A DNA stretch of 54,722 nt from a virus (Duplodnaviria; Caudoviricetes), in IMG/VR virus record IMGVR_UViG_3300017751_000022, positions 1 through 54,722 of that record; one strand, written 5' to 3'. The notes under the pieces were generated by a model. The model did not search any database. It was not told where the DNA came from and saw only the letters and a list, made by a program, of their open reading frames with translations. Below, one piece after another: positions 12,215 to 42,714 of the stretch; positions within the stretch are counted from its first letter, which is position 1, and each line of letters opens with the position of its first letter. Both the position numbers and the translations under genes were made by a program.

Positions 12215-15200
12215 TTAGTTGCCTTCAATTGCTAGTATGTAAGGAGTCATAACAGAGAACAATGATCTGTTAAATGCATCTCCTTCAATTCTTCCATCAG
12301 TTCTATTTATATGCAGTTCAGATCCAATTCTAAAATCACCTTTGTGATCCGTTGATGTGAAATAAACTGCACCTAAGTTTGTTGTTGAATCCTGGATTAC
12401 TTCATTTTCTGTTTTTGGGAAATCATCTGTTCTAGGTCTATTATATAAATCATCTGTATTTGCCCCTGAATCAGTCAAACCTCGTATTTCTGTGCCAGTT
12501 CCTACGTATTCAAATGTCATCGAACTTGCTGCGATTAAACTTCTCTTTTTAAATCTTGTCTCTAAGGAACCGGTGTAATCAATTCTGATATCCTCTAGTG
12601 GTGCTACACGATACACATCTATATTAGACGAAACGCTGGTTTGTATAGAAGATTTTGCTGTTAATATTGCATTCCTTGCAGTTATTTGTAAACCTTCCAT
12701 TGCACTACCTGGTGATGGATGAGCACCGGCATCATTTGTAAACTTAAGTCCTGCGAGTTGCGGTAAAGCATGTCCACCAGCATCAATGAAACTAACAATT
12801 TCACCTATTGATCGTGATATTTGCTCTCTAAGGCCACCAACAATTTGATACCCAGAAGAAACGGCGGGATCAGATACAGACAGTGCAATGCCATTTAGTG
12901 CGTTGTAATGAGATGAAGCAAAGTTAATAGTATTATCATCTATACGAATAATATAATATTTTCCTCCATCTACAAGTCCTGTAATATTAGACCCACTAGT
13001 GACAGTATAAACTATAGAATCACCCGTATTGTATAAGTGACCTGTTATTGCTATATCACTATCACCTGATATTTGTGTATTAGTAAAAGATGTGGTAATA
13101 TCAGATGATGCGAGTTGTGCAAGGATTCTCGTTTTAAGGAAATTATTATATGCCTCTTCCGTTTGCTCGCCATTACTACCTAACTGCAAATTTCCGTCAA
13201 CCCTATAACTACTTGCTGCTCTTATGGTTGCAGTATTAGTATTATATAGCACATCATATGTCATTGCATCAACAATAAACCCAATATCTCTTTTACATCT
13301 ATCTTTATCAGCAGCACCATTAGGGCCATAACTAAAATTATACCACAATGTGCCAATGCCTGCACTAGTGACCGCCGCATCGATGTCAGCTATAACATTG
13401 TCAATGATTGTTTGTCTATTTGTTTGCAATGCATTTTTAGCATCTATATATTTTTGAGGGCGAGCAAGGGCAGTTGGAAATGTTAGTGCAGGAACTGTAC
13501 CATCACCTGGCTGCGAGGTGCTTTGAGATCCGTTTATCAAAGTATTACTAATTATTCCAATGTTGTTTGTGACAGCTTGTTTCCAAAGACCATTGTCCGA
13601 ATGAAGGGGTTTAATGCGTCTTGAAATTTCATACATCATTGCAAGAGTAGGATTTTTTTGATAAGTCGTACCGAATCCGCCAGTATATACGCTACCTCTT
13701 TGATACGCTAATCCTGTATATACAGAATTAAAGTTTGTTCCTAATGCATTATCATCTGCAATTGCATCTATTATATATCCCGCATCACGACTACATTTTG
13801 TCGTGTTATAAAAGAATTTCGGAACAATATAATGACTCCCATTGTTAGCAATGGGTTGCACAGGTTCAGGTGCTTCGCCAACAGTTGTAACTAATTGGAA
13901 TTTATTTGTGTTATCAGAGACGCCTGCTAAGTTTACAAAATAAACAGTATTTGCGGTCAATCCACTTATACCTGAATATTCAACATTTCCATCAGAGTCT
14001 ACAGGTATAAAATATTTTACAGGTTGATCTTGCTGGAACCCGTGATTAGGAATTGTTATTGTCTTTGCTGCTGTTGAAACCCCATTAGATGTTGGATCGA
14101 AAGTCGCCAAAGTGTTCCCTGCATATGTTGTACCCGTGAAGTCAATTGAAGATACTACTTTTTCAACAGAGTAATGCTCAAGTGATTCATCGGAAACATT
14201 GTGCCCACCTAAACCACCCGTTTCAGCAACTGAAAATGCATCTCCGTATTTAGGCGGAGTCGAAGTTGCAATCTCAAAATACTCACCAAAAGTTTGTGAC
14301 TGAGCATTTGTTGCACCTGCATATAAATCCTCAGATGAACCTGTTGACTTTAATCCGAAAGTACCAAATGATGCATTTGAATTTGTCAATGAGCATTGCC
14401 CACCTGATTCACATAAAACAGCATGTTCACACGAAACAGTAAAGATAGAAACAAGTTGAGCATACCCACGATTAATGATGTGAACACCTGTACCGCCCGC
14501 ATTGATTTGCGTAAACGAATCAGATACCATTGATCTTAATCCTGCAGTCAAACTTCCGTCAATCAACATGCCTGTTGCAGTTGTATTGAATGCTGTGCAG
14601 TTTTCTACATAAGGACTTGTTTGAATTAGTTGCGGGACATTGCCGGGTTGTAACTGTAATGGAGGAAACGAAACAGCAGCAGGTGCTCTAGGTTCACCTC
14701 TTGCTGTGCCAGTTTTCATACCTATAAATGTTACATTTGTTATGTATGATGCGTTCTGTACATAGAACAAATCATGATATTGATCACTGCCTTTAATTTT
14801 TGTTGTTCTTAAATTGTCGCCAACAATTGATACATTAGGCGGGACAACCAAACCACCCATATCATATTCACCTGACGCAAATTGTCCTCTACCACCAACA
14901 TTTCCTATTATATATGTCCCGCTTTTTACAAAGATTGTTGTTCCTTCAGTTTCTCGTGTAAGTGAGTGAGAAGTGCCGGCGCCGTAAGCAGCGAGTGTAA
15001 TAGGACTTGTATTACTAATAGCGAATGCTTTACTTGCATGTAATGAAACGATACCTGTAGCAGTTTTTCTTACATAGTATTTTTGCCCATCAAGCAAAGA
15101 TGAATATGCGCCATTTTCGCCTTGATTATATACAACCTCATCACCTGTATCAAAGATATTGCCAGGTAATGCTATTGTGTCGTTTGAAATTATTGTATTT

Positions 15201-15508
15201 CCTTGAGAAAGATCAAATGTGACACTCGCAGGTGTTGCCCTCATTAATGCTTGATCAATAGTAAGAAAAGCAGTGCTTAATGTTTTGCCGTCATTATCAT
15301 CATTACCAGATTTAGAAACATAGAACACATTTTCTGCTTCAGAACTTTTGGCCACTTCATGAAGTGAAACATCGCCAAACTCATCCTTTTTGAAATACAT
15401 TTTGCCATCATGGGTATTGATTGCAATTTCGCCAAGTTCGAGTTCGTTGTTCTCTAAATCAGGTAGTAAACCTTGTACAGAACTTCTTTTTACTTTAATA
15501 GTTGACAT
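12215..15508 (-). CDS. Tailspike/fibre-like protein with Mtd_N-like N-terminus, pectin-lyase-like beta-helix and two C-x-R-D helical repeats (1097 aa)
   Basis: IKVKRSSV..LELGEIAINTHDGK; FYVSKSGNDDNDG..AFLTIDQAL; TIFVKSGTY..VSIVGDNLR; SPYVENCT..SMVSDSFTQ..GYAQLVSIFT; KCSRD and RCKRD repeats. Confidence 0.72.
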   Translation of the reverse strand: MSTIKVKRSSVQGLLPDLENNELELGEIAINTHDGKMYFKKDEFGDVSLHEVAKSSEAENVFYVSKSGNDDNDGKTLSTAFLTIDQALMRATPASVTFDLSQGNTIISNDTIALPGNIFDTGDEVVYNQGENGAYSSLLDGQKYYVRKTATGIVSLHASKAFAISNTSPITLAAYGAGTSHSLTRETEGTTIFVKSGTYIIGNVGGRGQFASGEYDMGGLVVPPNVSIVGDNLRTTKIKGSDQYHDLFYVQNASYITNVTFIGMKTGTARGEPRAPAAVSFPPLQLQPGNVPQLIQTSPYVENCTAFNTTATGMLIDGSLTAGLRSMVSDSFTQINAGGTGVHIINRGYAQLVSIFTVSCEHAVLCESGGQCSLTNSNASFGTFGLKSTGSSEDLYAGATNAQSQTFGEYFEIATSTPPKYGDAFSVAETGGLGGHNVSDESLEHYSVEKVVSSIDFTGTTYAGNTLATFDPTSNGVSTAAKTITIPNHGFQQDQPVKYFIPVDSDGNVEYSGISGLTANTVYFVNLAGVSDNTNKFQLVTTVGEAPEPVQPIANNGSHYIVPKFFYNTTKCSRDAGYIIDAIADDNALGTNFNSVYTGLAYQRGSVYTGGFGTTYQKNPTLAMMYEISRRIKPLHSDNGLWKQAVTNNIGIISNTLINGSQSTSQPGDGTVPALTFPTALARPQKYIDAKNALQTNRQTIIDNVIADIDAAVTSAGIGTLWYNFSYGPNGAADKDRCKRDIGFIVDAMTYDVLYNTNTATIRAASSYRVDGNLQLGSNGEQTEEAYNNFLKTRILAQLASSDITTSFTNTQISGDSDIAITGHLYNTGDSIVYTVTSGSNITGLVDGGKYYIIRIDDNTINFASSHYNALNGIALSVSDPAVSSGYQIVGGLREQISRSIGEIVSFIDAGGHALPQLAGLKFTNDAGAHPSPGSAMEGLQITARNAILTAKSSIQTSVSSNIDVYRVAPLEDIRIDYTGSLETRFKKRSLIAASSMTFEYVGTGTEIRGLTDSGANTDDLYNRPRTDDFPKTENEVIQDSTTNLGAVYFTSTDHKGDFRIGSELHINRTDGRIEGDAFNRSLFSVMTPYILAIEGN

Positions 15509-22433: not shown

Positions 22434-25400
22434 CTACGCATTGATTGAAAGCTGCCAATTGGCAGTTGTTGTTAATTTTTGTATAATCCCAGCAAGGACT
22501 GGGTTTTCTACCAGTTGTGATAATGAAATTTGCGGATTACCAAGCAAGTTAATATTTACATTGCCTCGCTTTGCGTTTTCATAATTCTGTTCAAGGTCTC
22601 TAAGAAGCCTTTCTGCTGATCCCGCAGACAATTGGTTATTGCTCAAGTTTAATGAATTTAACGATGTGCAATCAGGAAGAGAGCCCAACAAATATTCAAT
22701 TAAATTGTTATCTTGCAAATATATCTCTTGTATATTTAAACAATTGTCAAACCTTGGGACGATACCTGCAATGTTATTGTTGTTCGCTTTAAACTTCCAC
22801 AACTGCGCCGCTTCTAAATTTGCAACTTGAGATAACTGGTTATTGTCTATTGATATTTCATCAACAAAAGCGTTCGATATTGTAAACGCACCTGAGAACT
22901 TGTTATTACTTAGTGTCAAAGTAGATAAACTTCCCGCACCAGAGAAGTCAGGTATTTGGCCAGTCATTTCTGTATTAGTAATTTTAAATGTTGAAATTGA
23001 TGCAAGGAATGTCACATTCGGGAACTTTCCACGAATGTTTTTTGAAGTTGCAGATGCATTCTTTCCTTTGCCTTCAAGTTCGAATGTTGCCAAATTAGCA
23101 CAGTTAGCAAATGTCGCAGATGTACCTTGTATTTCAACAGCAGTTCCCGCTACTAACGGCACTCGTCTTACAGGTCTAACATAATATACATGATTCTTGT
23201 TTTCTAATATTTCTTTGCCGTCTATAAAACTCTTAGCGTATCCGTCAACATTATTATTAGCACTTGTTGATGTCCAGTAGTAACCTGTGCGATTGGTAAT
23301 AGAAACATTATCAATTGTGAAATTGCAGTTGTGTGATTCTACTCTCACATGAATTTGCGTTGATGCATTTACTGCAAATGTTCCTGAAACTGGACCTGAA
23401 CCTGCTGATGCTAAAACTTCACCTGTACCTAAAACATCACCTGCAGTTGGCGAACTTCCTGTAGCAACTGTTAAAACTGCTTTGTCTTGCTCAGCATCTG
23501 TTCCCCCGTCATAAAGCGTAGCTGAAGCGCCATTAATTGCGGCACCATCATTTGCGGCAGTGAATAGGTCGCCTAATGTTGGCGACCCTGAAAGGCCAGC
23601 GGCATTCCAGTCGAAGGCGTGATTAGATGTGAAATCATACCTGTTATTCGATCTTGATACAATAGCAATCAAGCCTCCCATTGCACTGTGGAATTGGCAA
23701 CCATAGTTAATGGCAACAATAGTCCCATCAGTTGCAGTAATTGTTGAAATGCCGTTAGACGTTGAAACAGTGACTCCTGAAGAAGAAGTAAACTGTAGAG
23801 GGTGATTAACACTGCCAATATAATTTGCATTGGAAGGATCCGTTCTGTTGTCAATTATTAAAGTGTCGCCAGTATATAATTTGAGAGAAGGATCATTCGA
23901 TGAACTGTATGAACTTTCAGAATCAGTGCCCGACAATATGTAATTGCTATTGCCGTCTGCACCAGTTATTGTTAAAGTATGCGTTTGCGGAGAATTGTCT
24001 TCAGTAAATTCATGAACTACAGGAGTTGCTGCAGTTGCATTTGCATAACTAGTTGCTAGTTTAAATGTATTAGTGCCTGTTTTAATTGTATAATAATCTG
24101 CATTTGCACTCAAACCTGTAACTGAACCCACTTGTCCCGAATCAAGCGAAAATTCAACTCGACCACCTGTAACAAAAGGATGTCCATTCGATGTGATTTG
24201 ATTGTTGCCAAAATCTAAATTAGCGTACGGAACATTATTAACACTGGCACGCTGAGTTCCAACGGATACAACCTTATACTCTTCACCAGTAACAAAGTTT
24301 CCTCCAGTTACAACATTTTGGTCACACGTAATAGCAGCAGAGAAGTCATATGTCCCCTTAGGTAGAACTATAACTTGATATACACCTGCATCGCCGTCTC
24401 CGTCCTGTGTCACAGATAAGTTTTGTCCTGCCGTGACTGCTGTCGAACCACCAGAGAATGGCGACCAGTTCGCTGATGTGCCTGAGATAAATGTTCCGTT
24501 TAACACTTTTTCATCTGGTGTATCAACATTAAATGCTTGCGCTCCACCTGCTTGGAATGCACTTGATGAGGTTTGCCCTGGATTTCCTTGTGTATAAGTT
24601 GCGTTATATGAGGGAACTGAATTCAAATTATTTCCCTGTGTTATGTCGTTTGCATCTGAACTAGGTTTCAAGTTTCTGTATATTACCTCTAATTCATCTT
24701 GTGACGGCAAATACCAATCAGTAAAATTCTGTCCGCCATTGATAGAACTGTCAGTATTATTGATATCCAATGCATCAGCAAAGGCAGCTGCTTCATAAGA
24801 AACTCCGCCCGCTGCTTCCGGCGTTGTATTAACCCAACCATTTGCACCGTCAACGCCACCTGCTGAGGCATCACCAGCGCCAGAATATCTAGCCAAAAAC
24901 CTTTCGTGTGATTTATCAGCTACAATAAGATAATATGTGTCAGATGCGAGCGTTCCAGAATTATCCTTCATAACTCCGCCGTAATAACCGCCTTGGAAAC
25001 TACTACCATAAGGTCCTGCGGGAGGAACAACAGTTTGCAATTGGAAATCGTTTGCAAAGAAATTGTATTCTGCATCGTCAAGTATGTGATTTACACCGTT
25101 ACTATCAGTGAAGTCATGATTGCCATCTGTCATTTTGAAGTATGACAAACTAGTTGTTCCATTAAATGTGTCGGGAGACAACCTTCCTGTGAACCTAGTG
25201 TTACCCAGACTCAAAGTTGTTAATGATGGCAAATTTTGAAAAGTATTATTGATTCTGCCATTAACATAACTATTTGCTAAATATACTGCTCCTAATGATT
25301 CACATCCGCTAAAGTAACCTTCAATGCCCGTTGACGTGGGCGGATTTGCATATGAATACAACTCAGATAATGTGACACTTTCTAAATACTTTTTACCAGA

Positions 25401-27137
25401 AAAATCAGGAACAGAAATGTTGTTGCCTACTAAAGACACCTTTGTTAAAGGATGTTCACCTGCCTGCCCAGCAGAGTTTGTATTAGGAAATGTCAATACG
25501 CTTTGATTGGTTCCATTTGCAAGCTTTTGACCATCAATGTTGCAGTATGCGACATCTATGTGTGTCAACTTTAATGAAGACATTACACTATAAGATAATT
25601 TCGTGTATCTGTGATTTCTTACATGATAAACTTTGATCGTGTTTGAATTAACTTTAGGTGTCTCGCCGGTATCAAACATTGTTCTAGTGGGAGAACCTGA
25701 ATAATACGCATTCCAATATAAATGAGTCAATGAACTATCAGTTAATTTTGTTATTTTATAATCGAAACCTGATGATGGCGGTGTCAATGTAAGAGAACTT
25801 CCACCAGAACTTCCAGAAAGTTTTACGCTATCACTATCAGCACTTACGACATAATATTGGCCATAGTTTGTCAAATTTGATATTGCTGAATTTGATTCTT
25901 GCTCATACACAACCACATCACCGTTTTGCAACCCGTGTCCCGCTGATACGATTTCATTATTGCTGACACTAGCAACATTAAATGTTATTGATTGTGTTGT
26001 TTTTAATGATGATAAATCAATAAAAGTACTGTCAGAGAATGTCGCATTGATACTCAACTTTGTTACTGATGCAGGACACCTTGTTAAAAGTTGTGTGTGC
26101 GCTGTCAAAGAGTTATCTTTTGTACTGAAACCGTTACCTGACATAGAAATTTCTCTCAAATTCTGAGAATGCCCATTAATGTACCCGCCTGCTATTTTAA
26201 AGAAGTCAGGAAATTCATTAAATAGGTTTGCTGGCGCACTAAATAGATTAAGGTTTTTCAATTCAGCATCTGGAAGATTTCTCAATCCCATGGATGAAAA
26301 TTTTAATTGTATAACACCAGAAGGATTATAGAAAAGTTCTAATTTCTTATCAGCGGGTGATGATTCAAATGATGCTGTCTGTAATGCACTACTATTTGCT
26401 GACCCAAAAACTGCAACCCTTTGCACAGGATCTATGTTTTCGTTGACAAATTCAACCGCAGGAGTAACGCTCGTGGGCGATACTTTATATTCAAGTTTTC
26501 CTAACTGCCAAAAACCTTCGAATGTCAACGGAATGTTTTTCATCGCATATAATTTTCTATTAGTTCCGTTGATGTTCATTGTGATTTGATGCGTTGCAAC
26601 CTCAGCGTCAAATTTCCTAGGTGTAACTTCACCTTTAAAAATTATATTGTCTGTTTTTACGACACTTTTTGTAGAATGTGCGTAGGATGTTGTGCTTGAA
26701 TCATAAGGGTTTATTTTGAGGTCAGCATTATAGAACACAGGACCATCACCAATTTGTGACCAAGATGATATACGACTTGTGGATATATCTGCACTTTTTG
26801 TTGCACCTAAACTGTCAACATAGTTGTATTTTATTGCACCTGCTCTAAGTTGATGATCAATTCTTAAGTCAGATTGTAATCCATCAGTAGTATCTGAAAG
26901 TGCAGTAAGTTCGCCAGTCACATACTCAGATGATTTAAACAAACTAAATTGTTGTTTTTCTTGATCTAGGTCAAGATTTCCCAACAGGTGTAGCATTTGT
27001 TTTGTTAAACCTGCAGAGGCAATACCACGAATATGGTCAAGGTCATCTCTATTTACACCCAAATTCTTCAATGACAGTTCTAAGTCATTGACATCGTTGA
27101 GGTAAAACCCTGTATTTAGACCTATAAATTTTGCCAT
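22434..27137 (-). CDS. Leucine-rich-repeat mosaic protein with DUF1566/Lcl-like, CBM-like and cupredoxin-like inserts (1567 aa)
   Basis: LRRs (LPSLTTLSLGNTRFTG, SLSTLTLSNNKFSG, SLNSLNLSNNQLS); DWYLPSQDEL..YYWTSTS..VRPVRR; NHPL..YGCQFHSAMGG. Confidence 0.75.
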   Translation of the reverse strand: MAKFIGLNTGFYLNDVNDLELSLKNLGVNRDDLDHIRGIASAGLTKQMLHLLGNLDLDQEKQQFSLFKSSEYVTGELTALSDTTDGLQSDLRIDHQLRAGAIKYNYVDSLGATKSADISTSRISSWSQIGDGPVFYNADLKINPYDSSTTSYAHSTKSVVKTDNIIFKGEVTPRKFDAEVATHQITMNINGTNRKLYAMKNIPLTFEGFWQLGKLEYKVSPTSVTPAVEFVNENIDPVQRVAVFGSANSSALQTASFESSPADKKLELFYNPSGVIQLKFSSMGLRNLPDAELKNLNLFSAPANLFNEFPDFFKIAGGYINGHSQNLREISMSGNGFSTKDNSLTAHTQLLTRCPASVTKLSINATFSDSTFIDLSSLKTTQSITFNVASVSNNEIVSAGHGLQNGDVVVYEQESNSAISNLTNYGQYYVVSADSDSVKLSGSSGGSSLTLTPPSSGFDYKITKLTDSSLTHLYWNAYYSGSPTRTMFDTGETPKVNSNTIKVYHVRNHRYTKLSYSVMSSLKLTHIDVAYCNIDGQKLANGTNQSVLTFPNTNSAGQAGEHPLTKVSLVGNNISVPDFSGKKYLESVTLSELYSYANPPTSTGIEGYFSGCESLGAVYLANSYVNGRINNTFQNLPSLTTLSLGNTRFTGRLSPDTFNGTTSLSYFKMTDGNHDFTDSNGVNHILDDAEYNFFANDFQLQTVVPPAGPYGSSFQGGYYGGVMKDNSGTLASDTYYLIVADKSHERFLARYSGAGDASAGGVDGANGWVNTTPEAAGGVSYEAAAFADALDINNTDSSINGGQNFTDWYLPSQDELEVIYRNLKPSSDANDITQGNNLNSVPSYNATYTQGNPGQTSSSAFQAGGAQAFNVDTPDEKVLNGTFISGTSANWSPFSGGSTAVTAGQNLSVTQDGDGDAGVYQVIVLPKGTYDFSAAITCDQNVVTGGNFVTGEEYKVVSVGTQRASVNNVPYANLDFGNNQITSNGHPFVTGGRVEFSLDSGQVGSVTGLSANADYYTIKTGTNTFKLATSYANATAATPVVHEFTEDNSPQTHTLTITGADGNSNYILSGTDSESSYSSSNDPSLKLYTGDTLIIDNRTDPSNANYIGSVNHPLQFTSSSGVTVSTSNGISTITATDGTIVAINYGCQFHSAMGGLIAIVSRSNNRYDFTSNHAFDWNAAGLSGSPTLGDLFTAANDGAAINGASATLYDGGTDAEQDKAVLTVATGSSPTAGDVLGTGEVLASAGSGPVSGTFAVNASTQIHVRVESHNCNFTIDNVSITNRTGYYWTSTSANNNVDGYAKSFIDGKEILENKNHVYYVRPVRRVPLVAGTAVEIQGTSATFANCANLATFELEGKGKNASATSKNIRGKFPNVTFLASISTFKITNTEMTGQIPDFSGAGSLSTLTLSNNKFSGAFTISNAFVDEISIDNNQLSQVANLEAAQLWKFKANNNNIAGIVPRFDNCLNIQEIYLQDNNLIEYLLGSLPDCTSLNSLNLSNNQLSAGSAERLLRDLEQNYENAKRGNVNINLLGNPQISLSQLVENPVLAGIIQKLTTTANWQLSINA

Positions 27138-30100
27138 TATTGTTCCTTAGATGTAATAGTCATTTGCACATCTGCCGAAGCAGTTATATCTCCCGTAGGT
27201 ATTATCGGTTGTGCAGTAAACACATAAGCAGTATTATTATATAACCCTGATGTTAAAAATGCTCGATCATAACCAAAAATATTATCAAGATCAAACTTAA
27301 CAGATTCATTCTCTCCTACATAGAATGAATACAATTTTACTCCGTCAACTAACGGATTAGTTGTTTGTGTATCGTATGTAACTGCTGCTAATGGATCAAT
27401 AGACAAAAAGTTTGATGGCGAATTAGCAGATGATACACCTGGATCTGATCTTAGCGTTATATTTGATGTCGTACTAAAACTAGAATCGAGATCATGCCCT
27501 CTAAAGTTAGGCACATGTGTCGTTGATGATAATGCTCCTATCTCTTCAACAATAATATTATTTATTCGAGCGTTTGATTTCATTGCCACAAACATATATA
27601 ACGGTTGAGCATTAAATCTGAACACCTGTGAATAACTGAAATTCTTTCTATTATCAGTTCCTGTCAATTTATTATCATCTGTTAATGTAACAACTTTGCC
27701 TAATATTTTTCCTGTTCCATTATCAGGTACAGCGTCAATAGCAGCAGTGTTGCCTCCGCCAGAATCTTTCACATATGCGACATTTCTTGTTACGGTTTCT
27801 GATTGTGATTGTCCAGTCAGAATTACCTCTTGATTAGGCAACACTTCACTTGCAAACACATATCCGGTTGCAGTTTCTTGTTCGTTATACATCACGCCGA
27901 CTTCTGCAATATTTAAATATCCCGAAGTGATAGGAGGAACATTACCTGTTCTAAATATTATCCTGCGATCTGCATCAATATCACCCGGAATAACGCTATC
28001 TATTTGCTCAATTTCGTATGATATTGTTCTTACTTCACCTTGTATGCATGACAGCACGCCATTAGTTGCAATTTGCCCGTTAGATAGTCGTCTACTGAAT
28101 GGCAATTCCATTCCTCGAATACGATAATCCTGTTCTAATCGTGTACCATAAGGGGAATCAGATTCTGAGTTATCAGCGCCAGTCATCAAATTTGCAACGT
28201 GAGTAGAATTTGCCCACTCAACATGCAATTGATCGTCAACTTTAAATGGTCGCAACCCTGTTGTTGGTTCGATCGCAGGTTCATTTTCAGGATATACTCT
28301 AAACCCATTCTCATCACCAAAACGCAGATATCCTAAATTTGTACCTGTTGATGAATCAACGTGTGTGCTAGGAGCATCAGAAGTTACGCCAATTGCAAAA
28401 TCAGAAAAATACGATCCTCGTCTTAACGGATTCAAAAAATGAATCTTAAATTTACCTGATGAAATCGGGGTATCAGATGCAACAATACTTCTGTATCCTA
28501 CTGCCTTTGTTTCAAATACGTGTTGCTCTGCTTGCGCAGTTGTAAAATCAACTTCTGTTCCATCAGGTTTAATAACAAGATCATTGAGTTCGTTAATAAA
28601 CGATGAACCTGTAAACACATAACTATTTCTTCTTATTACATCTCCTTGAGCAGTCGATCCTGATGTCGTATCAATATCTTTGATATACATATTGTATAAC
28701 CCGTCACCAATTATTTTTACTTTTTGATCAAGGTATGTTAAAGAATCAGGTGAATCTGCAGTCAATGATATTTTAGTTTTTTCTTGAACAATATTAAATT
28801 TAATATCTTTTTCAAATGCACTACCTGAATATAAATCGACAGATTTAGAACCATGATGCCCATCAGGAGAAACTCTTATCTGTGAAATATCAATTCTAAC
28901 ATCGTTAGAAGAAAACGCATTCAGCGTCAAAGGATAGATCTTCTTATTATTCCTTATCCCATCATATGTCGCATCTAGTTGCTGTGAGTTAGGATCAGAA
29001 TTATTAATGCCGAATGAATTAAATATCTTTTCTTTAGGGTGAATGCCGACAATTGAACCAGTTGCAGGCAAAGTTGTTGATGCTGTAAATGTTTTAGTAT
29101 CACTTGTGACACTATTGATTGTCACAGTTCCTTCATCGCCACCATCAATATAGTAGGACGATCCGTACTTATAAACAAATGTCGGTTCAGTGAGATTTTT
29201 TGTAACTTTATTTTGTAACACATACCTAAATTTAAAATCGGCATTTTTTAAAGCAGGTTCATTTAATTGATTTTCGATAACAAGAGTATGCATTCTAACC
29301 CATCTACATTCACCGCTACCTATGGGAATATATGCATAGAATTTTGCGCCAATAGCACCATACCAAGAGTATTCAATCTTGTACATAGTAACATTTTCAA
29401 CATCAATACTGTATCCAGATTCACCTGTTCCATCCAAAGGATCGCCATTCCACTTTTCTCGAGGAATAGTTAATGTGTACATAGGTTGTGAATTGTCACG
29501 ACTCGGAGGGACTTCAGGTCCTGTTTGGTCGCTTTCTTTCATTCTATATCGCCCAGTAATGACTTCATTAGGAATCGCATTAACTGATCGGCGAACAATG
29601 TTTAACCTTGTACCTGATGCTTGGAACATATATTGATCTGTTTCGTTTGCTGCACCCCATTCAACTTTGTCTGCAGTAGATGCCCTGTTGTTTTTCAATC
29701 TTAATCCAAACGTAAATCCTGAAACACGACCAGGTTGATACCTGAATGATTTTTTACTCTCAAGAACACCTATCGATTCATTCTGATCAGTTCCTCCTGG
29801 TCGACTTACATCAGGACTACACCATGCACGAATATTGCTGTATTGACCTACACCCGGAATCGGGAATGCAGAATACCCTTCATATTTGAAATCATACGAA
29901 GTTCCATTATACAAGTAAGGTGGGTAAGTGTCAATGTCATTTTGTATTCTATAATAAAATAATTGCCATTTTTCAATTTGATCCATTGAAAATTGTGAAC
30001 TATCGTTTGTTTCAGATCCGTAAACAACTGTTCGCCATAACGCTATACTCTTAAATCCGCCGCCGAGTTTTGCACTGTCCCACACATTAAAAGGAGAAGA

Positions 30101-30796
30101 TGAACTCGGCGCAAAGGTAATCGGAATAGGGTTTCTTTGTCGATCTTGAAATGTTAGGCAATCAGAAATGAAATTGTTGTCAGCAAATACACGATCAACA
30201 TCTTTCCATACTTCATACAACCATCTACCCAAAGCAAGAAACTTTAAATATTTTCCGAAATTGTCACTATAATCGGGTTGATTGTCTAGGTTTCTTCTGG
30301 GATGTCCTGGCCACCCATATTGAACAGGAAAGGATTTTAGGTAAAGTGCTTGCTCGTCTGTTCCTTCATAAAATCGAACATCACCTCTGTTGCCGAATAC
30401 AGGGTGCGCTCTATTATACCATTGATACGGATAACCTTGTGATCCAACTATGTAGTAATTCCAATTCGATCTGTCTAACCCATATGTCGATACATCAGAA
30501 AACAAACTTAGTTGTTCTTCTGCACGAGTGACACCTAACAGTGTTGAACTAACTTCTGATTCAGTTGGGAATTGTTCTTCTATCGGAATTGCTTCATTTG
30601 ATTTAGCATTTGCGATAAAACTCGACAACGCTTGATCAGCAGTTACAAACTCTGATAATTGTGCGCCTTCTTCTGTTACAAGTGGTTTACCCGCCTGGTC
30701 AACAAGCGGGGTACCAAATATATCTACTAATTGTTGAAATTGTTTGACTTTAGGTGATGCTACCTTATCAAATCCAATTTTTACCTGTCTTGGCAT
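27137..30796 (-). CDS. Large virion protein, RYQPGR family, paralogue B (1219 aa)
   Basis: Long ORF coupled to its neighbours; shares several motifs with the 1475-aa gene (FRYQPGRVS, SWYGA.GA, YYIDGGD.GTV). Confidence 0.62.
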   Translation of the reverse strand: MPRQVKIGFDKVASPKVKQFQQLVDIFGTPLVDQAGKPLVTEEGAQLSEFVTADQALSSFIANAKSNEAIPIEEQFPTESEVSSTLLGVTRAEEQLSLFSDVSTYGLDRSNWNYYIVGSQGYPYQWYNRAHPVFGNRGDVRFYEGTDEQALYLKSFPVQYGWPGHPRRNLDNQPDYSDNFGKYLKFLALGRWLYEVWKDVDRVFADNNFISDCLTFQDRQRNPIPITFAPSSSSPFNVWDSAKLGGGFKSIALWRTVVYGSETNDSSQFSMDQIEKWQLFYYRIQNDIDTYPPYLYNGTSYDFKYEGYSAFPIPGVGQYSNIRAWCSPDVSRPGGTDQNESIGVLESKKSFRYQPGRVSGFTFGLRLKNNRASTADKVEWGAANETDQYMFQASGTRLNIVRRSVNAIPNEVITGRYRMKESDQTGPEVPPSRDNSQPMYTLTIPREKWNGDPLDGTGESGYSIDVENVTMYKIEYSWYGAIGAKFYAYIPIGSGECRWVRMHTLVIENQLNEPALKNADFKFRYVLQNKVTKNLTEPTFVYKYGSSYYIDGGDEGTVTINSVTSDTKTFTASTTLPATGSIVGIHPKEKIFNSFGINNSDPNSQQLDATYDGIRNNKKIYPLTLNAFSSNDVRIDISQIRVSPDGHHGSKSVDLYSGSAFEKDIKFNIVQEKTKISLTADSPDSLTYLDQKVKIIGDGLYNMYIKDIDTTSGSTAQGDVIRRNSYVFTGSSFINELNDLVIKPDGTEVDFTTAQAEQHVFETKAVGYRSIVASDTPISSGKFKIHFLNPLRRGSYFSDFAIGVTSDAPSTHVDSSTGTNLGYLRFGDENGFRVYPENEPAIEPTTGLRPFKVDDQLHVEWANSTHVANLMTGADNSESDSPYGTRLEQDYRIRGMELPFSRRLSNGQIATNGVLSCIQGEVRTISYEIEQIDSVIPGDIDADRRIIFRTGNVPPITSGYLNIAEVGVMYNEQETATGYVFASEVLPNQEVILTGQSQSETVTRNVAYVKDSGGGNTAAIDAVPDNGTGKILGKVVTLTDDNKLTGTDNRKNFSYSQVFRFNAQPLYMFVAMKSNARINNIIVEEIGALSSTTHVPNFRGHDLDSSFSTTSNITLRSDPGVSSANSPSNFLSIDPLAAVTYDTQTTNPLVDGVKLYSFYVGENESVKFDLDNIFGYDRAFLTSGLYNNTAYVFTAQPIIPTGDITASADVQMTITSKEQ
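29724..29746. repeat. 23-bp exact repeat acacgaccaggttgatacctgaa, copy 1 (copy 2 at 34827-34849)
   Basis: Identical DNA encoding the FRYQPGRV motif in both paralogues. Confidence 0.8.
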
Positions 30797-33700
30797 TTAC
30801 TGTTCTTCCCATGTCAATCCTATTGCTATGTCATTTGTTGTGTCGCCGACTTTTTTATCAGAGTCTATCGCAAAGTATAACGTCTCTGGTACATCAGTTA
30901 ATGGGTAAGATAAATACTCTTTGTTGTAATCAAAATACGTATTCAAATCAACTTGCTCAGTACCTTTATTCATGTACAGTGTTGCAATGTTTGTTCCAGT
31001 ATTCGGAATAGGTGTAACAACATTACTTACAACATTTATAGAAGTTAGTGTATCTGCCAAAGGTTGAATTGCTGCAGTTTCAACGCTTGATTGTGTGACT
31101 GTAGCGTTTCCACCTGTGCCAGCAGTAAAGAATCGCTTATCAGGCAAAAACGCACCGCTTACATTTAACGTAACTGCTTCGTTATATGATTCTAATACTT
31201 CAAAGTAATATAAGCCTGATTTCTTATATAGCCTTCCAAATATTGTTTCATCGTTGACTTCACCGACTTTACCTTGGAACCATCCATAAATAGATTCGCT
31301 ATTTTGAATATATCCAGCATTGCTTATAGACAAAGCATTGTTTGCTGCTGTAACAGCGTATTCTGCTGTCAATGTTAATGTGCCAGTAGGTGTCACGAGA
31401 GTCTGGAAAATTGGCGTTCTTTTCATACGCAACCTAACAGGATCATCGTTTATATTTGATGTTGACATCTTTGTAGGATAAACTTGAACACGGTTACGAA
31501 CGGGATTACCTTCTTCCGTACTGTAAATAACATCTTTCGTTTCAAGACCGTATACTGTATTTGCACGATCAGGAATCAATGTTATGCCTTGACCTTGAGG
31601 TTGTTTGCTTAAAGTTATAACTTTAGTCGTGTTGTCCACCCAAACTACCTTGATACCTGTATCTGATGCAAGAGTTGTCTTAACCTCTGCACCCATAAAG
31701 TATACTAAATCAGGCAATGTCTCGCTATCGGTTGTTGCGGTTATACCTAAAGCAGTAAGATCAATTGTCGTATCAGTATGATTATAAAGAGTTGACAACT
31801 CCCATTTTTTACCATAACTTGTAACAACATCGTTATTGTTGTGGCTGTATAGGCGAACAGTACCACGGTCACCACCATCGATATAGTATGAAGCACCATA
31901 TTTTACAATGTGGTGACTGTTTGTTCCGTATGTTTGATCTTGTTGCTCATTGTCACCTAAAGTAAGATCTGAGCCGCCGCCCCATATGTTGTATGTGATC
32001 GGCAATGTTGCGTTACCAAGAGATGCAATCTTCAACTGATTCGATGCTCTTAGGTGATGTACTCGTACCCATCGTGCTTCACCGTTACCGATTGGAACAT
32101 AAGCAAGGAACAATGCACCTACCGCACCATACCACGAGAACTCAACTTTAAGCATCGTTACTTTTGTAAAATCAAATTCATATTCTGATGTAGCATCAAC
32201 ATTCAATCCGTTTTCGTCTAGCACATCCATACCTGGTCGTACAATTCCTGTAGGACCTGACGCCAAATCACTATAAACTCTTCTAGATGTTTTTCCGTCT
32301 AGTTTATCATGACTGAATCGTGAACGAGGCACACGATACTCGTAAACACCCCAAAATTCTGGTTTAACATTATTTTTAATCCAGTTTATGTATGCTGGTT
32401 CAAATATAACTGTGTCATATTGTTTTCTGATAGTGTCAATTGTACCATCTGATAGCGGGTTTTCACTTGTGTCGATATATCCTATGTACTTTGCAATTGT
32501 ATCATCTAGATCACCTGTTGATGAATAACGTAATGGCCATTGCATACCTGTCGGGAACGTATCGTTACTTGCACTAAATACAGTTTGTTCATCAGATGTT
32601 CCCACATAATTTTGTATTGTTCCAGACGCCCGACCATTCGCACCAGGAGATTGTCTATAATATGCAGGATTATAAACTTGATCACCTATAAATGGAACAA
32701 CTGTTTCAACATAAATTTCATCGCTGACAAGATGATCAGTTATATCAGAAGGTGTAGTAACTCCATCCGTATCTTCGGCATATGCATAAATGTCAACACC
32801 ATCTTCGTCTTGTAGAGAGAACTCTGACCCCGTAGGACCGTAAACTCTGCTTACAGTAAATATTTGACCATACTTTTGTGGTTTTAGTTTAAAGTTAGCA
32901 GGGTTTGTTTGATCAGGGTCTTGATTCAGATTATTTGTTGCGCCAAACGGCTTATATTGAATGCCGTCAGGAACTAAAAATTCTGCAGATGCGTTAGTCA
33001 CAACTTTGACTTTTTGACCAAAAGTCACAGAACCTTTTGTTAATTTGAATACCGTAGGTTGAGTTGTGTCAAATGGTGCTGAGACATGTGTTCTTATTTG
33101 CTCAATATCTTTTAATAAACTCGGGTCATTTACTGCGGCATGAACCATTAATAATCCATCACGGAAAGCAATAATGTTACCTGCAAATCCTCTATCGCCT
33201 AATTCAGCGCCTGCAGTTGTTTCTGTGCTGAAGTTGCCTATGACTATTCTTGCCAAGTCGTCTACTTTGTCTCTAGTTGAAGTTGATCCTACAGAGATAT
33301 TAGCATCTGTTAAGTCATCGTAAATTAACTTGAATAGATGTTTGTGCTTTTTAATTTCTCTTGGAAGCGCAACTAATTCTTGATTAACTGTCGATTCATC
33401 AACCTGAGTAAAGATAGATAATCCATCTGCTTTGTAATACATTGATGCATTATATAAAGTTTCTGAGTTACCTCCACCTGAAACATCATTTCTATACCCT
33501 GTAATAATATACTCAAGATCTCGAGCACATTTGTACTTAATATTTCTATAGAATTCATTTACAGCGAGTGCATCACTAGCGGTAATCAATGTAAATGTAT
33601 TTCCTACGGCACCTACAGTGTCACCTACTGCCCAAGGATAATCTGAGCCATTTAACTCTTTGCCAATCAAATTTGCATTGTAATCTGACGGTAAAAAGTT

Positions 33701-35224
33701 TGCTGCCGCTCTAAATGTGTATGTTTGATAGGTTCCGCCGGCATAAATATTGTCGGTGTCTATAAAATCAGACGCCCCTAATCCTTCATCGATACCTGTT
33801 GGGTTAAACTGAGATACATAGTATGACCAGAAATGTTTTCTGGAATCAAACAACACATCATGTTTTTTCTTAGAACCCCAAGTTATGCCTGAAGTATAAT
33901 TATCAAAAATGCTTTGCGCAACTGTCCAACTCGCACCCGTTAAGTCGTTTGTGCCGCCAGTAGCACCAGCACTATTCTTAATACATGTAAAGAATCCATC
34001 AGTGCCTGGAGTGTTGCCAGTTGTTCCGGCAATCAAAACACTATACAAGTCATTATTTAATTTATTTTTAACGCCAGCAGTTAGCGCAGATAAGTTTGAA
34101 TCTTGTGTGACGCTATGCGCACCAGTTATCAATCCGTTTGCTTGTTTGTGCAAGTCATACTCAAACTGTGCAGGTGCTACAGGATCGCCGCCAGTCGGGA
34201 ATATTTGCGGGAATACGCCTGTATAATAATTTTTAATATTGATTCTTGTATGTGCATCACCGCCCCATTCGAGATCCATTAACATCATTTTAAGAGCAAA
34301 ACCTACGTCACGATGACATTTTCCTTTAAATTCGTATCTCTTGTAATCTGTATTTAAACCTTCATTCTGATCATTGTTACCAGCGTTATTTGAATTGTAA
34401 TAATAATCAGCGAAGTCGTTATTGCCGCCATTGGCACCCAATAGATTATCAAATGCTGTTTTTGCAATATGAATAATATGTTCGCTCAACAATTCTCTGT
34501 CACGAGTATACAGCGTACCCTTTTCTTGTTTACCCTCTTTACCAACAACACGATAATCATCAGTTTGATTGTAAGGTATGGGAGTATCTTCACCTGTCGA
34601 TGAAGGTTTACGTAAATTTTCAACAGTCAAACCAAATGGTGATGACGGAAACTTCAATAACGATTGTGTTCTGCGAATTACGTTAAAGTTATCACCTTCA
34701 CCTGATTGTTTTGTTTCCCAATAATATCCATCGAAGTTGTCGAAGATACCATACTTTCTGATTACGGGATTTTTGGCAAAATCACTTCCTGATACAGTAC
34801 ACTTGATACCAAATGTTGCAGCAGATACACGACCAGGTTGATACCTGAAGAAACGCTTTGATGTTAATACAGCTGATTGATCACGAGGTGCTTCAACAAG
34901 CGCACCCGCTTCATTAGGCAAATGTTTAATGCCAAATCCTGTATTGTAATATTGAGGACTTGATGACCACTCTGATGGGTTCACATCATATGTATTAACG
35001 TCTGCAAAGATACCTAAAGCAACTTCAGAACGTGGTATACCCAGTAATGACAAGGAAACTTCTGATTGCACCTTGTTTTGCTCAACAACCGGAACAGCAG
35101 TTTGGTCGCTTGCAAGTACAACAGGTATCGATTTAGATGCCGGTTGTTGACCTGGAGCAACTGGGGTTGTTCTACCTACATTAACTACCCGAGTGTTATT
35201 GTTAATATTTGTTAAGCTAGACAT
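30797..35224 (-). CDS. Large virion protein, RYQPGR family, paralogue A, with two C-x-R-D helical repeats (1475 aa)
   Basis: SIPVVLASDQ N-terminus, FRYQPGRVS, KCHRD and KCARD repeats, C-terminal LTWEEQ. Confidence 0.62.
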   Translation of the reverse strand: MSSLTNINNNTRVVNVGRTTPVAPGQQPASKSIPVVLASDQTAVPVVEQNKVQSEVSLSLLGIPRSEVALGIFADVNTYDVNPSEWSSSPQYYNTGFGIKHLPNEAGALVEAPRDQSAVLTSKRFFRYQPGRVSAATFGIKCTVSGSDFAKNPVIRKYGIFDNFDGYYWETKQSGEGDNFNVIRRTQSLLKFPSSPFGLTVENLRKPSSTGEDTPIPYNQTDDYRVVGKEGKQEKGTLYTRDRELLSEHIIHIAKTAFDNLLGANGGNNDFADYYYNSNNAGNNDQNEGLNTDYKRYEFKGKCHRDVGFALKMMLMDLEWGGDAHTRINIKNYYTGVFPQIFPTGGDPVAPAQFEYDLHKQANGLITGAHSVTQDSNLSALTAGVKNKLNNDLYSVLIAGTTGNTPGTDGFFTCIKNSAGATGGTNDLTGASWTVAQSIFDNYTSGITWGSKKKHDVLFDSRKHFWSYYVSQFNPTGIDEGLGASDFIDTDNIYAGGTYQTYTFRAAANFLPSDYNANLIGKELNGSDYPWAVGDTVGAVGNTFTLITASDALAVNEFYRNIKYKCARDLEYIITGYRNDVSGGGNSETLYNASMYYKADGLSIFTQVDESTVNQELVALPREIKKHKHLFKLIYDDLTDANISVGSTSTRDKVDDLARIVIGNFSTETTAGAELGDRGFAGNIIAFRDGLLMVHAAVNDPSLLKDIEQIRTHVSAPFDTTQPTVFKLTKGSVTFGQKVKVVTNASAEFLVPDGIQYKPFGATNNLNQDPDQTNPANFKLKPQKYGQIFTVSRVYGPTGSEFSLQDEDGVDIYAYAEDTDGVTTPSDITDHLVSDEIYVETVVPFIGDQVYNPAYYRQSPGANGRASGTIQNYVGTSDEQTVFSASNDTFPTGMQWPLRYSSTGDLDDTIAKYIGYIDTSENPLSDGTIDTIRKQYDTVIFEPAYINWIKNNVKPEFWGVYEYRVPRSRFSHDKLDGKTSRRVYSDLASGPTGIVRPGMDVLDENGLNVDATSEYEFDFTKVTMLKVEFSWYGAVGALFLAYVPIGNGEARWVRVHHLRASNQLKIASLGNATLPITYNIWGGGSDLTLGDNEQQDQTYGTNSHHIVKYGASYYIDGGDRGTVRLYSHNNNDVVTSYGKKWELSTLYNHTDTTIDLTALGITATTDSETLPDLVYFMGAEVKTTLASDTGIKVVWVDNTTKVITLSKQPQGQGITLIPDRANTVYGLETKDVIYSTEEGNPVRNRVQVYPTKMSTSNINDDPVRLRMKRTPIFQTLVTPTGTLTLTAEYAVTAANNALSISNAGYIQNSESIYGWFQGKVGEVNDETIFGRLYKKSGLYYFEVLESYNEAVTLNVSGAFLPDKRFFTAGTGGNATVTQSSVETAAIQPLADTLTSINVVSNVVTPIPNTGTNIATLYMNKGTEQVDLNTYFDYNKEYLSYPLTDVPETLYFAIDSDKKVGDTTNDIAIGLTWEEQ
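34827..34849. repeat. 23-bp exact repeat, copy 2
   Basis: Identical to 29724-29746. Confidence 0.8.
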
Positions 35225-41184: not shown

Positions 41185-42714
41185 TTATTTGTTATTTTTT
41201 AAATCTTGCACTTGTTGTTGCAGTTCTTTAATTGCCTCAATAAGTAGTGCAATAGTGTTGTCATACCTAACTGCTTTTTTGCCATCATTTGTTTCATAAA
41301 CTGCTTCAGGTAACACTTGCTCTAACTCCTGAGCAATCACGCCAGGAACTCGACCCTTTTCAGGTGAATCAATATAATTAAACGTGTAACCTGAAATAGA
41401 ACTTACTTTATCGAGAGCATTCTGTATAGGTTCAATATTTTCTTTTAATGATTCATCAGATGCAGTGCCAAATGCAGTAATATCACCTTGACAAATTAAA
41501 TTTCCAGTTGTCGTTTCAAATTCAAACTTAACCGTATCGCCAGTTGCATTATCACCAATTACAACTCTATTTTTTGATTTTAAAATCAGATCTGGGCATG
41601 TTGCAATTATATTGAAGTTGTCATCAGCAGCATTTTGGCCTTTGTCGTACATAATATATGATTCGCCAGATAAATGCTCTCCGGCTGCTGCTACATTACT
41701 TCGACCGAATGATAACTTAATATCATCACCGACTTTAAGGCCGTTACCTGAAATCGTTGACCTTTGTGCATTAGAAGATGGATTTGACAAAACAAATCCG
41801 CCTAAGTCAATCGAACTTGCTGCGGTTACGTGGCCATACGAATCAAATGTTAAATTAGTAACTGCTTGACCCGATGAAGTATCTGATGCTACAGTCGCAG
41901 GAGTATAGTGATCTATAACATTAGTGCTATTAATTGTTGTGAATCCATCAGAGGCCGCAATAACGGTGTTATCACCAGTCGCTACTGTGCCTATAAGACC
42001 TCCACCCAAAAATACTTCAGTTGTATCGCCTCCAACTCCTGCACCCAATGACAATCGTGCTGTTACATCAGCAGAACCATTGATAGAAAATGTCCCTATA
42101 ACATCTGATGCAACATCATCTACCGTCCCAAATGTAATTGTTCGTGTGTTTGCCCAAGCGGTGGCTGTAGCCGCAGCAATATCATCTGGCAAAATTGTGT
42201 TACTTATCTCTATATTAGTGCCCGATACTATACCTTTTGTTCCTGTACCTAAAGGACCTGATGGTTGTGCAATTGTAAGTTCGGTTTCAGGTTGGCTATT
42301 AACAGCATTACGACCAATTATTTGAAATTTAGTATGTGTTGATTCGTGTGGGCCCATGCGCCATGTATCCACATACACATCGTTACCTGCATCACTATCA
42401 CCTTGATCCTCAAAATATTGAAACTGTAAACTTGAATTGTCACCTGCTTTTGGAACACGAATCGTTTGTGTCTTTGTTGTGAATAATGCATCGACAACAA
42501 TATCAGTTCCTGAGTGCGGTTCAATTAAATTAGTTTTAACCCTATCTTCAGTTTCTAAAAATTGATCAACATAAATTGAACTATTATTGTTTTGATCAGC
42601 GCCGCCCATCGTAACAACATTCGACAGAGATGCTCCAATAGAATTTGTCCTATTCAGCCAATCTTGAAATGTTTGATCAGCTGTTATGTTAGTTGTAAAA
42701 GAATTAATCGCCAT
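41185..42714 (-). CDS. Tail fibre with C-terminal intramolecular chaperone (Peptidase_S74) (509 aa)
   Basis: GDITAFGTASDESLKENIEPIQNALDKVSSISGYTFN..GVIAQELEQVLPEAV..AVRY..LLIEAIKEL; N-terminal QTFQDWLNRTN. Confidence 0.88.
   Translation of the reverse strand: MAINSFTTNITADQTFQDWLNRTNSIGASLSNVVTMGGADQNNNSSIYVDQFLETEDRVKTNLIEPHSGTDIVVDALFTTKTQTIRVPKAGDNSSLQFQYFEDQGDSDAGNDVYVDTWRMGPHESTHTKFQIIGRNAVNSQPETELTIAQPSGPLGTGTKGIVSGTNIEISNTILPDDIAAATATAWANTRTITFGTVDDVASDVIGTFSINGSADVTARLSLGAGVGGDTTEVFLGGGLIGTVATGDNTVIAASDGFTTINSTNVIDHYTPATVASDTSSGQAVTNLTFDSYGHVTAASSIDLGGFVLSNPSSNAQRSTISGNGLKVGDDIKLSFGRSNVAAAGEHLSGESYIMYDKGQNAADDNFNIIATCPDLILKSKNRVVIGDNATGDTVKFEFETTTGNLICQGDITAFGTASDESLKENIEPIQNALDKVSSISGYTFNYIDSPEKGRVPGVIAQELEQVLPEAVYETNDGKKAVRYDNTIALLIEAIKELQQQVQDLKNNK

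Follow-up and report, generated by a model that had tools for sequence, protein, structure and literature searches.

Why should a structural protein of a phage particle contain the motif by which phycobiliproteins hold their pigment? The question is raised by P0001, a protein of 1475 amino acids (aa) encoded on the minus strand (30797..35224) of a 54,722-nucleotide IMG/VR virus record, IMGVR_UViG_3300017751_000022. The whole of this record, referred to here as the window, was analysed; it comes from an uncultured marine T4-like phage and its estimated completeness is 32%. P0001 was recognized from its open reading frame (ORF), its translation and its match to phrog_1645 ('virion structural protein'), and its orthologue in cyanophage S-TIM5, gp120, is annotated as a virion structural protein as well. 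Two C-x-R-D motifs lie in a long segment of P0001 which its neighbouring paralogue lacks. C-X-R-D is described as the attachment motif of phycobiliproteins, in which Cys is bonded to the A ring and Arg and Asp are hydrogen-bonded to the chromophore (PMC10151467). We conclude with high confidence that the segment contains real, ancient and strongly constrained members of the bilin-binding globin lineage which have been inserted in a virion protein.

Both motif-bearing peptides described in an earlier note, made from the letters of this DNA alone, were found unchanged in the translation of P0001: FKGKCHRDVGFALKMMLMDLEWGGD, in which Cys303 is encoded at 34316-34318, and KYKCARDLEYIITGYRNDVSGGGN, in which Cys566 is encoded at 33527-33529. 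The first candidate bilin-attachment motif, K302-C303-H-R305-D306 (34307..34321, minus strand), aligns to K83-C84-A-R86-D87 of CpcA and is placed in helix 69-96 of an AlphaFold2 (AF2) model. It belongs to globin-fold phycobiliprotein-like domain 1, P0001 residues ~234-436 (33917..34525, minus strand; model residues 10-212), which was matched by the hidden Markov model (HMM) of the family at 301-405 with E 9e-13. The second, K565-C566-A-R568-D569 (33518..33532, minus strand), is placed in model helix 325-359 of domain 2, residues ~451-668 (33221..33874, minus strand; model residues 227-444; family HMM 560-673, E 6.7e-18), in which a non-helical excursion of ~76 aa (473-548) is predicted ahead of the Cys-bearing helix. 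The second pair of such domains is located in a 1097-aa fibre-like protein (12215-15508) matched by tail-fibre PHROGs: its domain 1 covers residues 562-665 with Cys572 (13514..13825, minus strand) and its domain 2 residues 727-833 with Cys738 (13010..13330, minus strand; HMM E 7.7e-19).

The 21 large ORFs of the window (17,735 aa, 76 Cys) contain four C.RD motifs, those at C303 and C566 of P0001 and at C572 and C738 of the 1097-aa protein. In 5,000 per-protein shuffles the mean number was 0.164 and the maximum 3, so that four were never reached. An HMM built from 1,189 domains of 78 giant proteins, from which the P0001 orthologues had been excluded, detected exactly four copies in the window, with E 1.5e-19 for the Cys572 domain, 4.7e-18 for the Cys738 domain, and 6.9e-10 and 6.4e-6 for the remaining two. 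C, R, D, D(+14) and Y(+30) are invariant in the alignment of the four segments, an alignment that the earlier note had proposed. The spacing of the GG pair was also seen correctly there: Cys303 is followed by GG at +18/+19 and Cys566 by GGG at +17..+19, and in C-phycocyanin alpha the distance from Cys84 to Gly102-Gly103 is +18/+19 according to the HMMER alignment. The idea that K-C-x-R-D...GG merely arose on an ordinary helical bundle without any phycobiliprotein ancestry is difficult to reconcile with four motifs observed against 0.16 expected.

The P0001 pair and the pair of the 1097-aa protein show pairwise similarity of 26-36% over 39-116 aa. BLASTP of one protein against the other was not significant alone (best E 0.019), and profiles were therefore needed. 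Judged by their sequences, the two pairs are not recent copies of one another, and the P0001 pair is old, since every one of the 28 orthologues retains it.

The paralogue P0002 (1219 aa; 27137..30796, minus strand) is orthologous to S-TIM5 gp119 and has three conserved blocks in common with P0001. The segment missing from it, an insert of ~779 aa (P0001 residues 186-963; 32336..34669, minus strand), was delimited by BLASTP and MAFFT anchors. On the left, NVIRR (P0001 181-185) pairs with NIVRR (P0002 399-403) in the BLASTP alignment; on the right, VPRSRFSHDKLDG (P0001 965-977) pairs with IPREKWNGDPLDG (P0002 444-456), the VPR...D.LDG block, in the MAFFT alignment. Between these anchors there are ~779 aa in P0001 vs ~40 aa in P0002, and P0002 has neither a C.RD motif nor a match to the family HMM. 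In S-TIM5 gp120, 246 aa stand opposite P0001 residues 199-947, without a C.RD motif or a family-HMM match, and gp119 is likewise without a C-x-R-D domain. The order of the two genes is kept in S-TIM5 (locus L105, 5956-13554; gp120 of 1058 aa, gp119 of 1472 aa), and the duplication of the paralogues is therefore older than the split. In each paralogue a different loop has acquired a large insertion of its own; in P0002 and gp119 it amounts to ~230 extra aa between the first two conserved blocks.

The core shared by the paralogues (P0002 330-640) was modelled as a ConA-like lectin/glucanase beta-sandwich, in a weak model with a predicted local distance difference test score (pLDDT) of 58 and a predicted template modelling score (pTM) of 0.57. 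Of the 50 rows returned by VIA for this core, those examined were lectins, galectins, GH16 glucanases, alginate lyases and similar beta-sandwiches (Z 8.4-10.9), and the best viral structural match was an S-TIM5 virion structural protein. In the same model (pLDDT 58) the insert site is located in a loop that connects strands. The tail of the insert, residues 669-963 (32336-33220), is conserved in orthologues (e.g. RDGL, VNDP and a beta-rich stretch); it gave no family match and was partly modelled with low pLDDT.

All eight residues K302, C303, R305, D306, K565, C566, R568 and D569 are invariant in the 28 orthologues, the insert identity of which goes down to 27%. Two of the four Cys residues of P0001 are in the motif, and in several orthologues of ~1,400 aa the sole two Cys are both in C.RD. 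A search with residues 285-720 in 1.84 billion representative proteins gave 145 proteins at E<=1e-3. Many of these relatives are giant (2,000-6,400 aa) and were matched in as many as 24 stretches, and their Cys residues are mostly within C.RD (e.g. 23/27 in P0050 and 8/8 in P0097). With an iterated local HMM, 1,561 domain copies were collected from 196 proteins, mostly giant phage proteins. The Cys is retained in 95.8% of the copies, the Arg in 94.0% and the Asp in 97.1%, with GGN at +18 to +20, and Asp(+14) in 96.9% and Tyr(+30) in 94.6%, Thr(+46) being frequent. As copies with the motif had served to seed the profile, these percentages have an upward bias. The mean column identity across diverged copies is 17%. 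The residues D317/D580 (Asp +14) and Y333/Y596 (Tyr +30) of P0001 are as invariant family-wide as the C-x-R-D triad.

The domain is repeated with a median period of 153 aa, in up to ~30 tandem copies in giant fibre-like proteins, and the relatives have Mtd_N, pectate-lyase-like, DUF1565 and FG-GAP modules at their N-termini. It thus occurs on different scaffolds, the ConA-like lectin-core protein P0001, the fibre-like protein and the giant proteins, and with different N-terminal modules, and is therefore a portable module that fibre and virion proteins of phages share. Of the suggestion that it is a mobile insert acquired by two scaffolds, the part concerning mobility holds, since several scaffolds carry it and P0002 and gp120 lack it; a recent transfer between P0001 and the 1097-aa protein is not supported by their similarity. 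Such domains in phage structural proteins were not described in the papers found by a literature search at the level of titles and abstract openings. None of P0001, P0002 and the 1097-aa protein is covered by an NCBIfam family. The insert had no tblastn match among 50,697 isolate phage records, and the ESM Atlas feature search gave no usable match.

The long tandem arrays would suit a building block. The domains may have descended from bilin globins and now serve, pigment-free, as rigid spacers or decoration, with C, R and D retained for folding, contacts or assembly. We consider this apo module possible but rather unlikely. A spacer has no obvious need for a chromophore triad preserved in 94-97% of the 1,561 copies, all the more so as Cys is otherwise rare in these proteins.

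The relationship to phycobiliproteins was examined along three lines. PF00502 scored above its curated cut-off (22.2 bits) in 6 of the 26 relatives scanned: P0041 (51.5 bits), P0059 (50.1), P0058 (37.2), P0047 (30.4), P0166 (25.2) and P0061 (22.9); four more matched below the cut-off. The best of these matches had E ~1e-13 and covered ~100 of the 155 model positions. In NCBIfam, P0059 matched phycocyanin-alpha far below threshold and no other family, and phmmer of P0041 against the PDB gave no match at E<=0.1. All PDB sequences were then searched with two profiles made from the window and IMG/VR loci, A3 with 16 sequences and A4 with 124. The smaller profile gave 37 matches at E<=10 (best 1.4e-3), nearly all of them phycocyanin or phycoerythrin alpha chains; the exceptions were two rows, an antibody chain and TuSp1. 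With the larger one, 26 of the 28 matches at E<=1 were phycocyanin alpha (best 1.8e-4, over CpcA 36-103). Both profiles placed K-C-x-R-D on CpcA K83-C84-x-R86-D87 and GG on G102-G103 in the HMMER alignments.

The third line was structural. The AF2 model of P0001 225-725, based on the 28-sequence alignment (pLDDT 75, pTM 0.81), consists of two helical domains, and in both of them the Cys is located in a long helix. In a VIA search of 48,161 PDB chains, phycobiliproteins or the ApcE bilin domain occupied seven of the top nine rows (Z 9.4-11.5), phycobilisome subunits and phycoerythrins being among the top rows. Domain 1 was aligned by VIA with far-red allophycocyanin 8or7_A (Z 11.5), 8imk_G (Z 10.4) and phycoerythrin 1b8d_A (Z 10.1), and domain 2 with the ApcE bilin-binding domain 4xxi_A (Z 10.9, rmsd 2.7, 112 aligned). 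Sensor globins and photocobilins followed with Z 8-9.8. The structural alignments mostly begin near residue 34 of the phycobiliprotein chain (two begin at 15-17), and the N-terminal X-Y hairpin, which serves alpha-beta assembly, is therefore probably missing.

Several results limit the claim of homology or would suit a chance resemblance. The four segments of the window did not match PF00502 (E<=1; only Pfam noise), nor did its six frames, and the direct E-values of the window's own sequences were weak (1.4e-3 at best). When the two-domain model was compared with the PDB by Foldseek, no row had an E below 1 and there were just weak phycobilisome and haemoglobin rows at E 1.7-4.6. Z values of 10-11.5 are within the range that VIA warns of for helical folds and are not decisive alone. 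The Pfam, PDB-profile and structural lines agree, and the claim of homology is carried by their agreement. PF00502 reaches E 1e-13 over ~100 HMM positions in the relatives, phycobiliproteins top a structural search of the PDB at large, and the profile alignments extend over CpcA 36-103, well beyond the motif. Coincidence therefore seems very improbable, and the phycobiliprotein-like character noted from the letters alone is borne out by the fold search, by the alignments on Cys84/Arg86/Asp87 and by Pfam.

It is also conceivable that the same fold holds a different ligand, such as heme, a corrinoid, a metal or a host-surface molecule, with Cys acting as a ligand, redox or disulphide residue. 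Sensor globins, which bind heme, and photocobilins, which bind B12 and biliverdin, are among the structural matches (Z 8-9.8), and the invariant Asp(+14) and Tyr(+30) and the frequent Thr(+46) are foreign to phycobiliproteins. Heme globins, however, were not among the matches of the sequence profiles, which were almost all phycocyanin or phycoerythrin alpha chains, PF00502 was the sole globin-type Pfam family matched, and the motif is the bilin motif as described in PMC10151467. We therefore regard another ligand as improbable.

The pathway of bilin synthesis was looked for in 37 carrier records from contigs of at least 45 kb, out of 86 loci; 43 loci on shorter contigs were dropped, L002-L005 were searched separately, and L006 and L007 were left out. 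Both a bilin reductase gene (PF05996) and a heme oxygenase gene (PF01126) were found in 6 of the 37 carrier records, neighbouring or close together (~0.2-1.7 kb apart). All five records that are at least 67% complete (67, 79, 80, 100 and 100%) have both genes: G001, G025, G031, G036 and G041. G035 and G036 gave identical scores and look like one lineage. G001 is a 114-kb contig of 67% completeness with an orthologue of P0001 (52% identity in the insert) and an orthologue of the fibre-like protein with four domains; its adjoining genes for heme oxygenase and ferredoxin-dependent bilin reductase lie among T4-type replication genes. Four other contigs bearing orthologues, fragments of 24-35% completeness, were searched and contained neither gene. 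Just upstream of the G001 gene pair there are homologues of the curli-secretion proteins CsgF and CsgG, a CHASE2-adenylate/guanylate cyclase and a CbbQ/NirQ-type AAA ATPase (locus L010, 2239-3622, 6106-8175 and 12-800).

A pigment-free module is also at odds with the gene content of the near-complete carrier genomes examined, since all five encode heme oxygenase and bilin reductase. In favour of the association, the G001 bilin reductase, used as the query, matched only 11 of 50,697 isolate phage records. Marine and freshwater phages, some of them on presumed heterotrophic alphaproteobacterial hosts, have been described to carry heme oxygenase and bilin reductase genes, the products of which are proven enzymes (PMC11480375). 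In the same account the purpose of the HemO/PcyX cassettes in phages of heterotrophs is left unexplained, BBAG-type globins being mentioned only as a possibility.

A light-harvesting role of the kind known from cyanophages was rejected: psbA was found in none of 12 large carrier records, two complete ones included, which makes such a role unlikely. The carrier phages are probably not cyanophages. Lyase-dependent attachment was likewise unsupported, as CpeT was found in 0/12 and CpeS in 0/5 carrier records, E/F-type lyases being outside the search. In the absence of CpeT and CpeS any attachment would be autocatalytic or would proceed via an unknown helper. BBAG-1 and BBAG-3 globins with C-X-R-D are reported to bind bilins without lyases (PMC10151467).

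P0001 is a virion protein of the tail/baseplate module with a conserved core that resembles a ConA-like lectin beta-sandwich; in what appears to be a surface loop, this core carries the ~780-aa insert, which opens with two globin-fold domains of the bilin-binding globin lineage that keep C-x-R-D. We propose that at virion assembly each domain is loaded with biliverdin or a reduced bilin, linear tetrapyrroles that the heme oxygenase and the ferredoxin-dependent bilin reductase of the phage would supply. Since neither CpeT nor CpeS, nor any other known lyase family, turned up in the carrier records searched, attachment would probably be autocatalytic, the mode described for BBAG globins. The outcome would be a pigmented appendage of the particle, the pigment of which could sense light, guard against light damage or stabilise the fold. 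That the domains carry a bilin is in our view the best-supported mechanism, with a probability of roughly 0.55. The wider picture, in which virions of phages of non-photosynthetic marine hosts bear covalently bound, phage-made bilins on the tail or baseplate as a light-responsive device (e.g. for day/night gating of adsorption or ejection) or as a photoprotectant, is tentative and rather doubtful, and a light-related function of the particle is a speculation that we would call unlikely.

A number of observations tell against a bound bilin. Bilin binding is deduced from motif, fold and gene co-occurrence, and CpcA has nothing that corresponds to the family-invariant Asp(+14) and Tyr(+30), so that a different ligand is conceivable. 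The pathway was seen in relatives only, because the window covers ~32% of the genome and has no bilin gene. The scan with these HMMs covered carriers of the domain alone, and related records share ancestry. Two carrier records of 53% and 56% completeness are without either gene, which would suit a pigment-free module, as would the lack of CpeT and CpeS in the carrier records searched. So would Pelagibacter phage Mosig. The best homologue of the G001 bilin reductase in the isolate phage records is that of Mosig (47% identity), which has hemO, bilin reductase and ferrochelatase. Mosig was rejected as a cultured carrier: it has no C-x-R-D domain according to the profile and local HMMs, and no C.RD motif in any frame of at least 50 aa. 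The pathway is therefore not dependent on the domain and has, or also has, another client. In Mosig (locus L090, 1596-6681), hemO and the bilin reductase gene are in a block with ferrochelatase and four 2OG-Fe(II) oxygenase genes, beside neck genes.

Among known systems, the phycobiliproteins (PF00502; CpcA is the nearest) share with the phage domain the globin-type helical fold, K-C-x-R-D at the helix E equivalent, the GG pair and a size similar to the ~153 aa of the phage repeat. Unlike them, the phage domain sits inside virion proteins, paired or in long tandem arrays, its copies in the window are below the Pfam cut-off, the X-Y hairpin is probably missing, Asp(+14) and Tyr(+30) are additional invariant residues, and the searched carrier records contain no CpeT or CpeS lyase genes and no psbA. 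The bilin domain of ApcE (PDB 4xxi), the best match of domain 2, is also a phycobiliprotein-type domain within a large multidomain protein; ApcE, however, is a cyanobacterial core-membrane linker and antenna anchor with linker repeats. The ApcE domain too has a loop insertion, and its bilin is not known to need a lyase for attachment; its attachment Cys lies elsewhere than at the Cys84-equivalent position.

The BBAGs of heterotrophic bacteria, compared here by their published description, are phycobiliprotein paralogues outside photosynthesis, with C-X-R-D in BBAG-1 and BBAG-3, and in genomes they are linked to the genes of the bilin pathway, those for heme oxygenase and for bilin reductase (Rockwell, Martin and Lagarias 2023, PMC10151467). 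As described there, they are small stand-alone cellular proteins encoded beside the pathway genes, whereas the phage domains are in virion proteins and the pathway is elsewhere in the genome. Photoglobins, or photocobilins (PDB 8j2y and 8j2w; structural match Z 9.2 and 8.6), have a biliverdin-binding globin domain too, but they are cellular photoreceptors with a fused B12-binding domain and, according to PMC10151467, with C-X-Q-D instead of C-X-R-D.

The paper surveying the bilin genes of phages of heterotrophs names no client for them (PMC11480375), a role that the domain family described here could fill. With this family the bilin-binding globin lineage, known from antennae and from small globins of bacteria, extends to virus particles. 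Should bilin binding be true, the HemO/PcyX cassettes of oceanic phages, so far unexplained, would gain their first client protein, and a virion that bears a pigment and may be photosensory would be known for the first time; with a real pigment, some phages might respond to light directly.

The large ORFs of the window are nearly all on the minus strand and together make up a tail and baseplate module of the T4 type, in which Pfam and PHROGs recognized the baseplate wedge proteins gp6, gp7 and gp8, a DUF4815 protein, fibres with the S74 chaperone, beta-helix and leucine-rich repeat proteins and several 'virion structural' and 'tail fiber' families; structural genes fill the window throughout and no bilin genes are present in it. 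The nearest isolate homologues of gp6 are those of Sinorhizobium phages phiN3 and phiM12 (36%) and of Caulobacter phage Cr30, and not those of cyanophages. The sole large plus-strand ORF (18142-20961, 939 aa) lies within the minus-strand structural module and has no Pfam or PHROG match. A 1567-aa protein of the fibre cluster (22434-27137, minus strand) contains leucine-rich repeats and an Lcl C-terminal-like domain, both below Pfam cut-offs, and is possibly a host-binding protein. Peptidase_S74 chaperone domains are typical of self-cleaving tail fibres and spikes, and a 509-aa fibre (41185-42714, minus strand) ends in such an intramolecular chaperone domain, matched with 60 bits.

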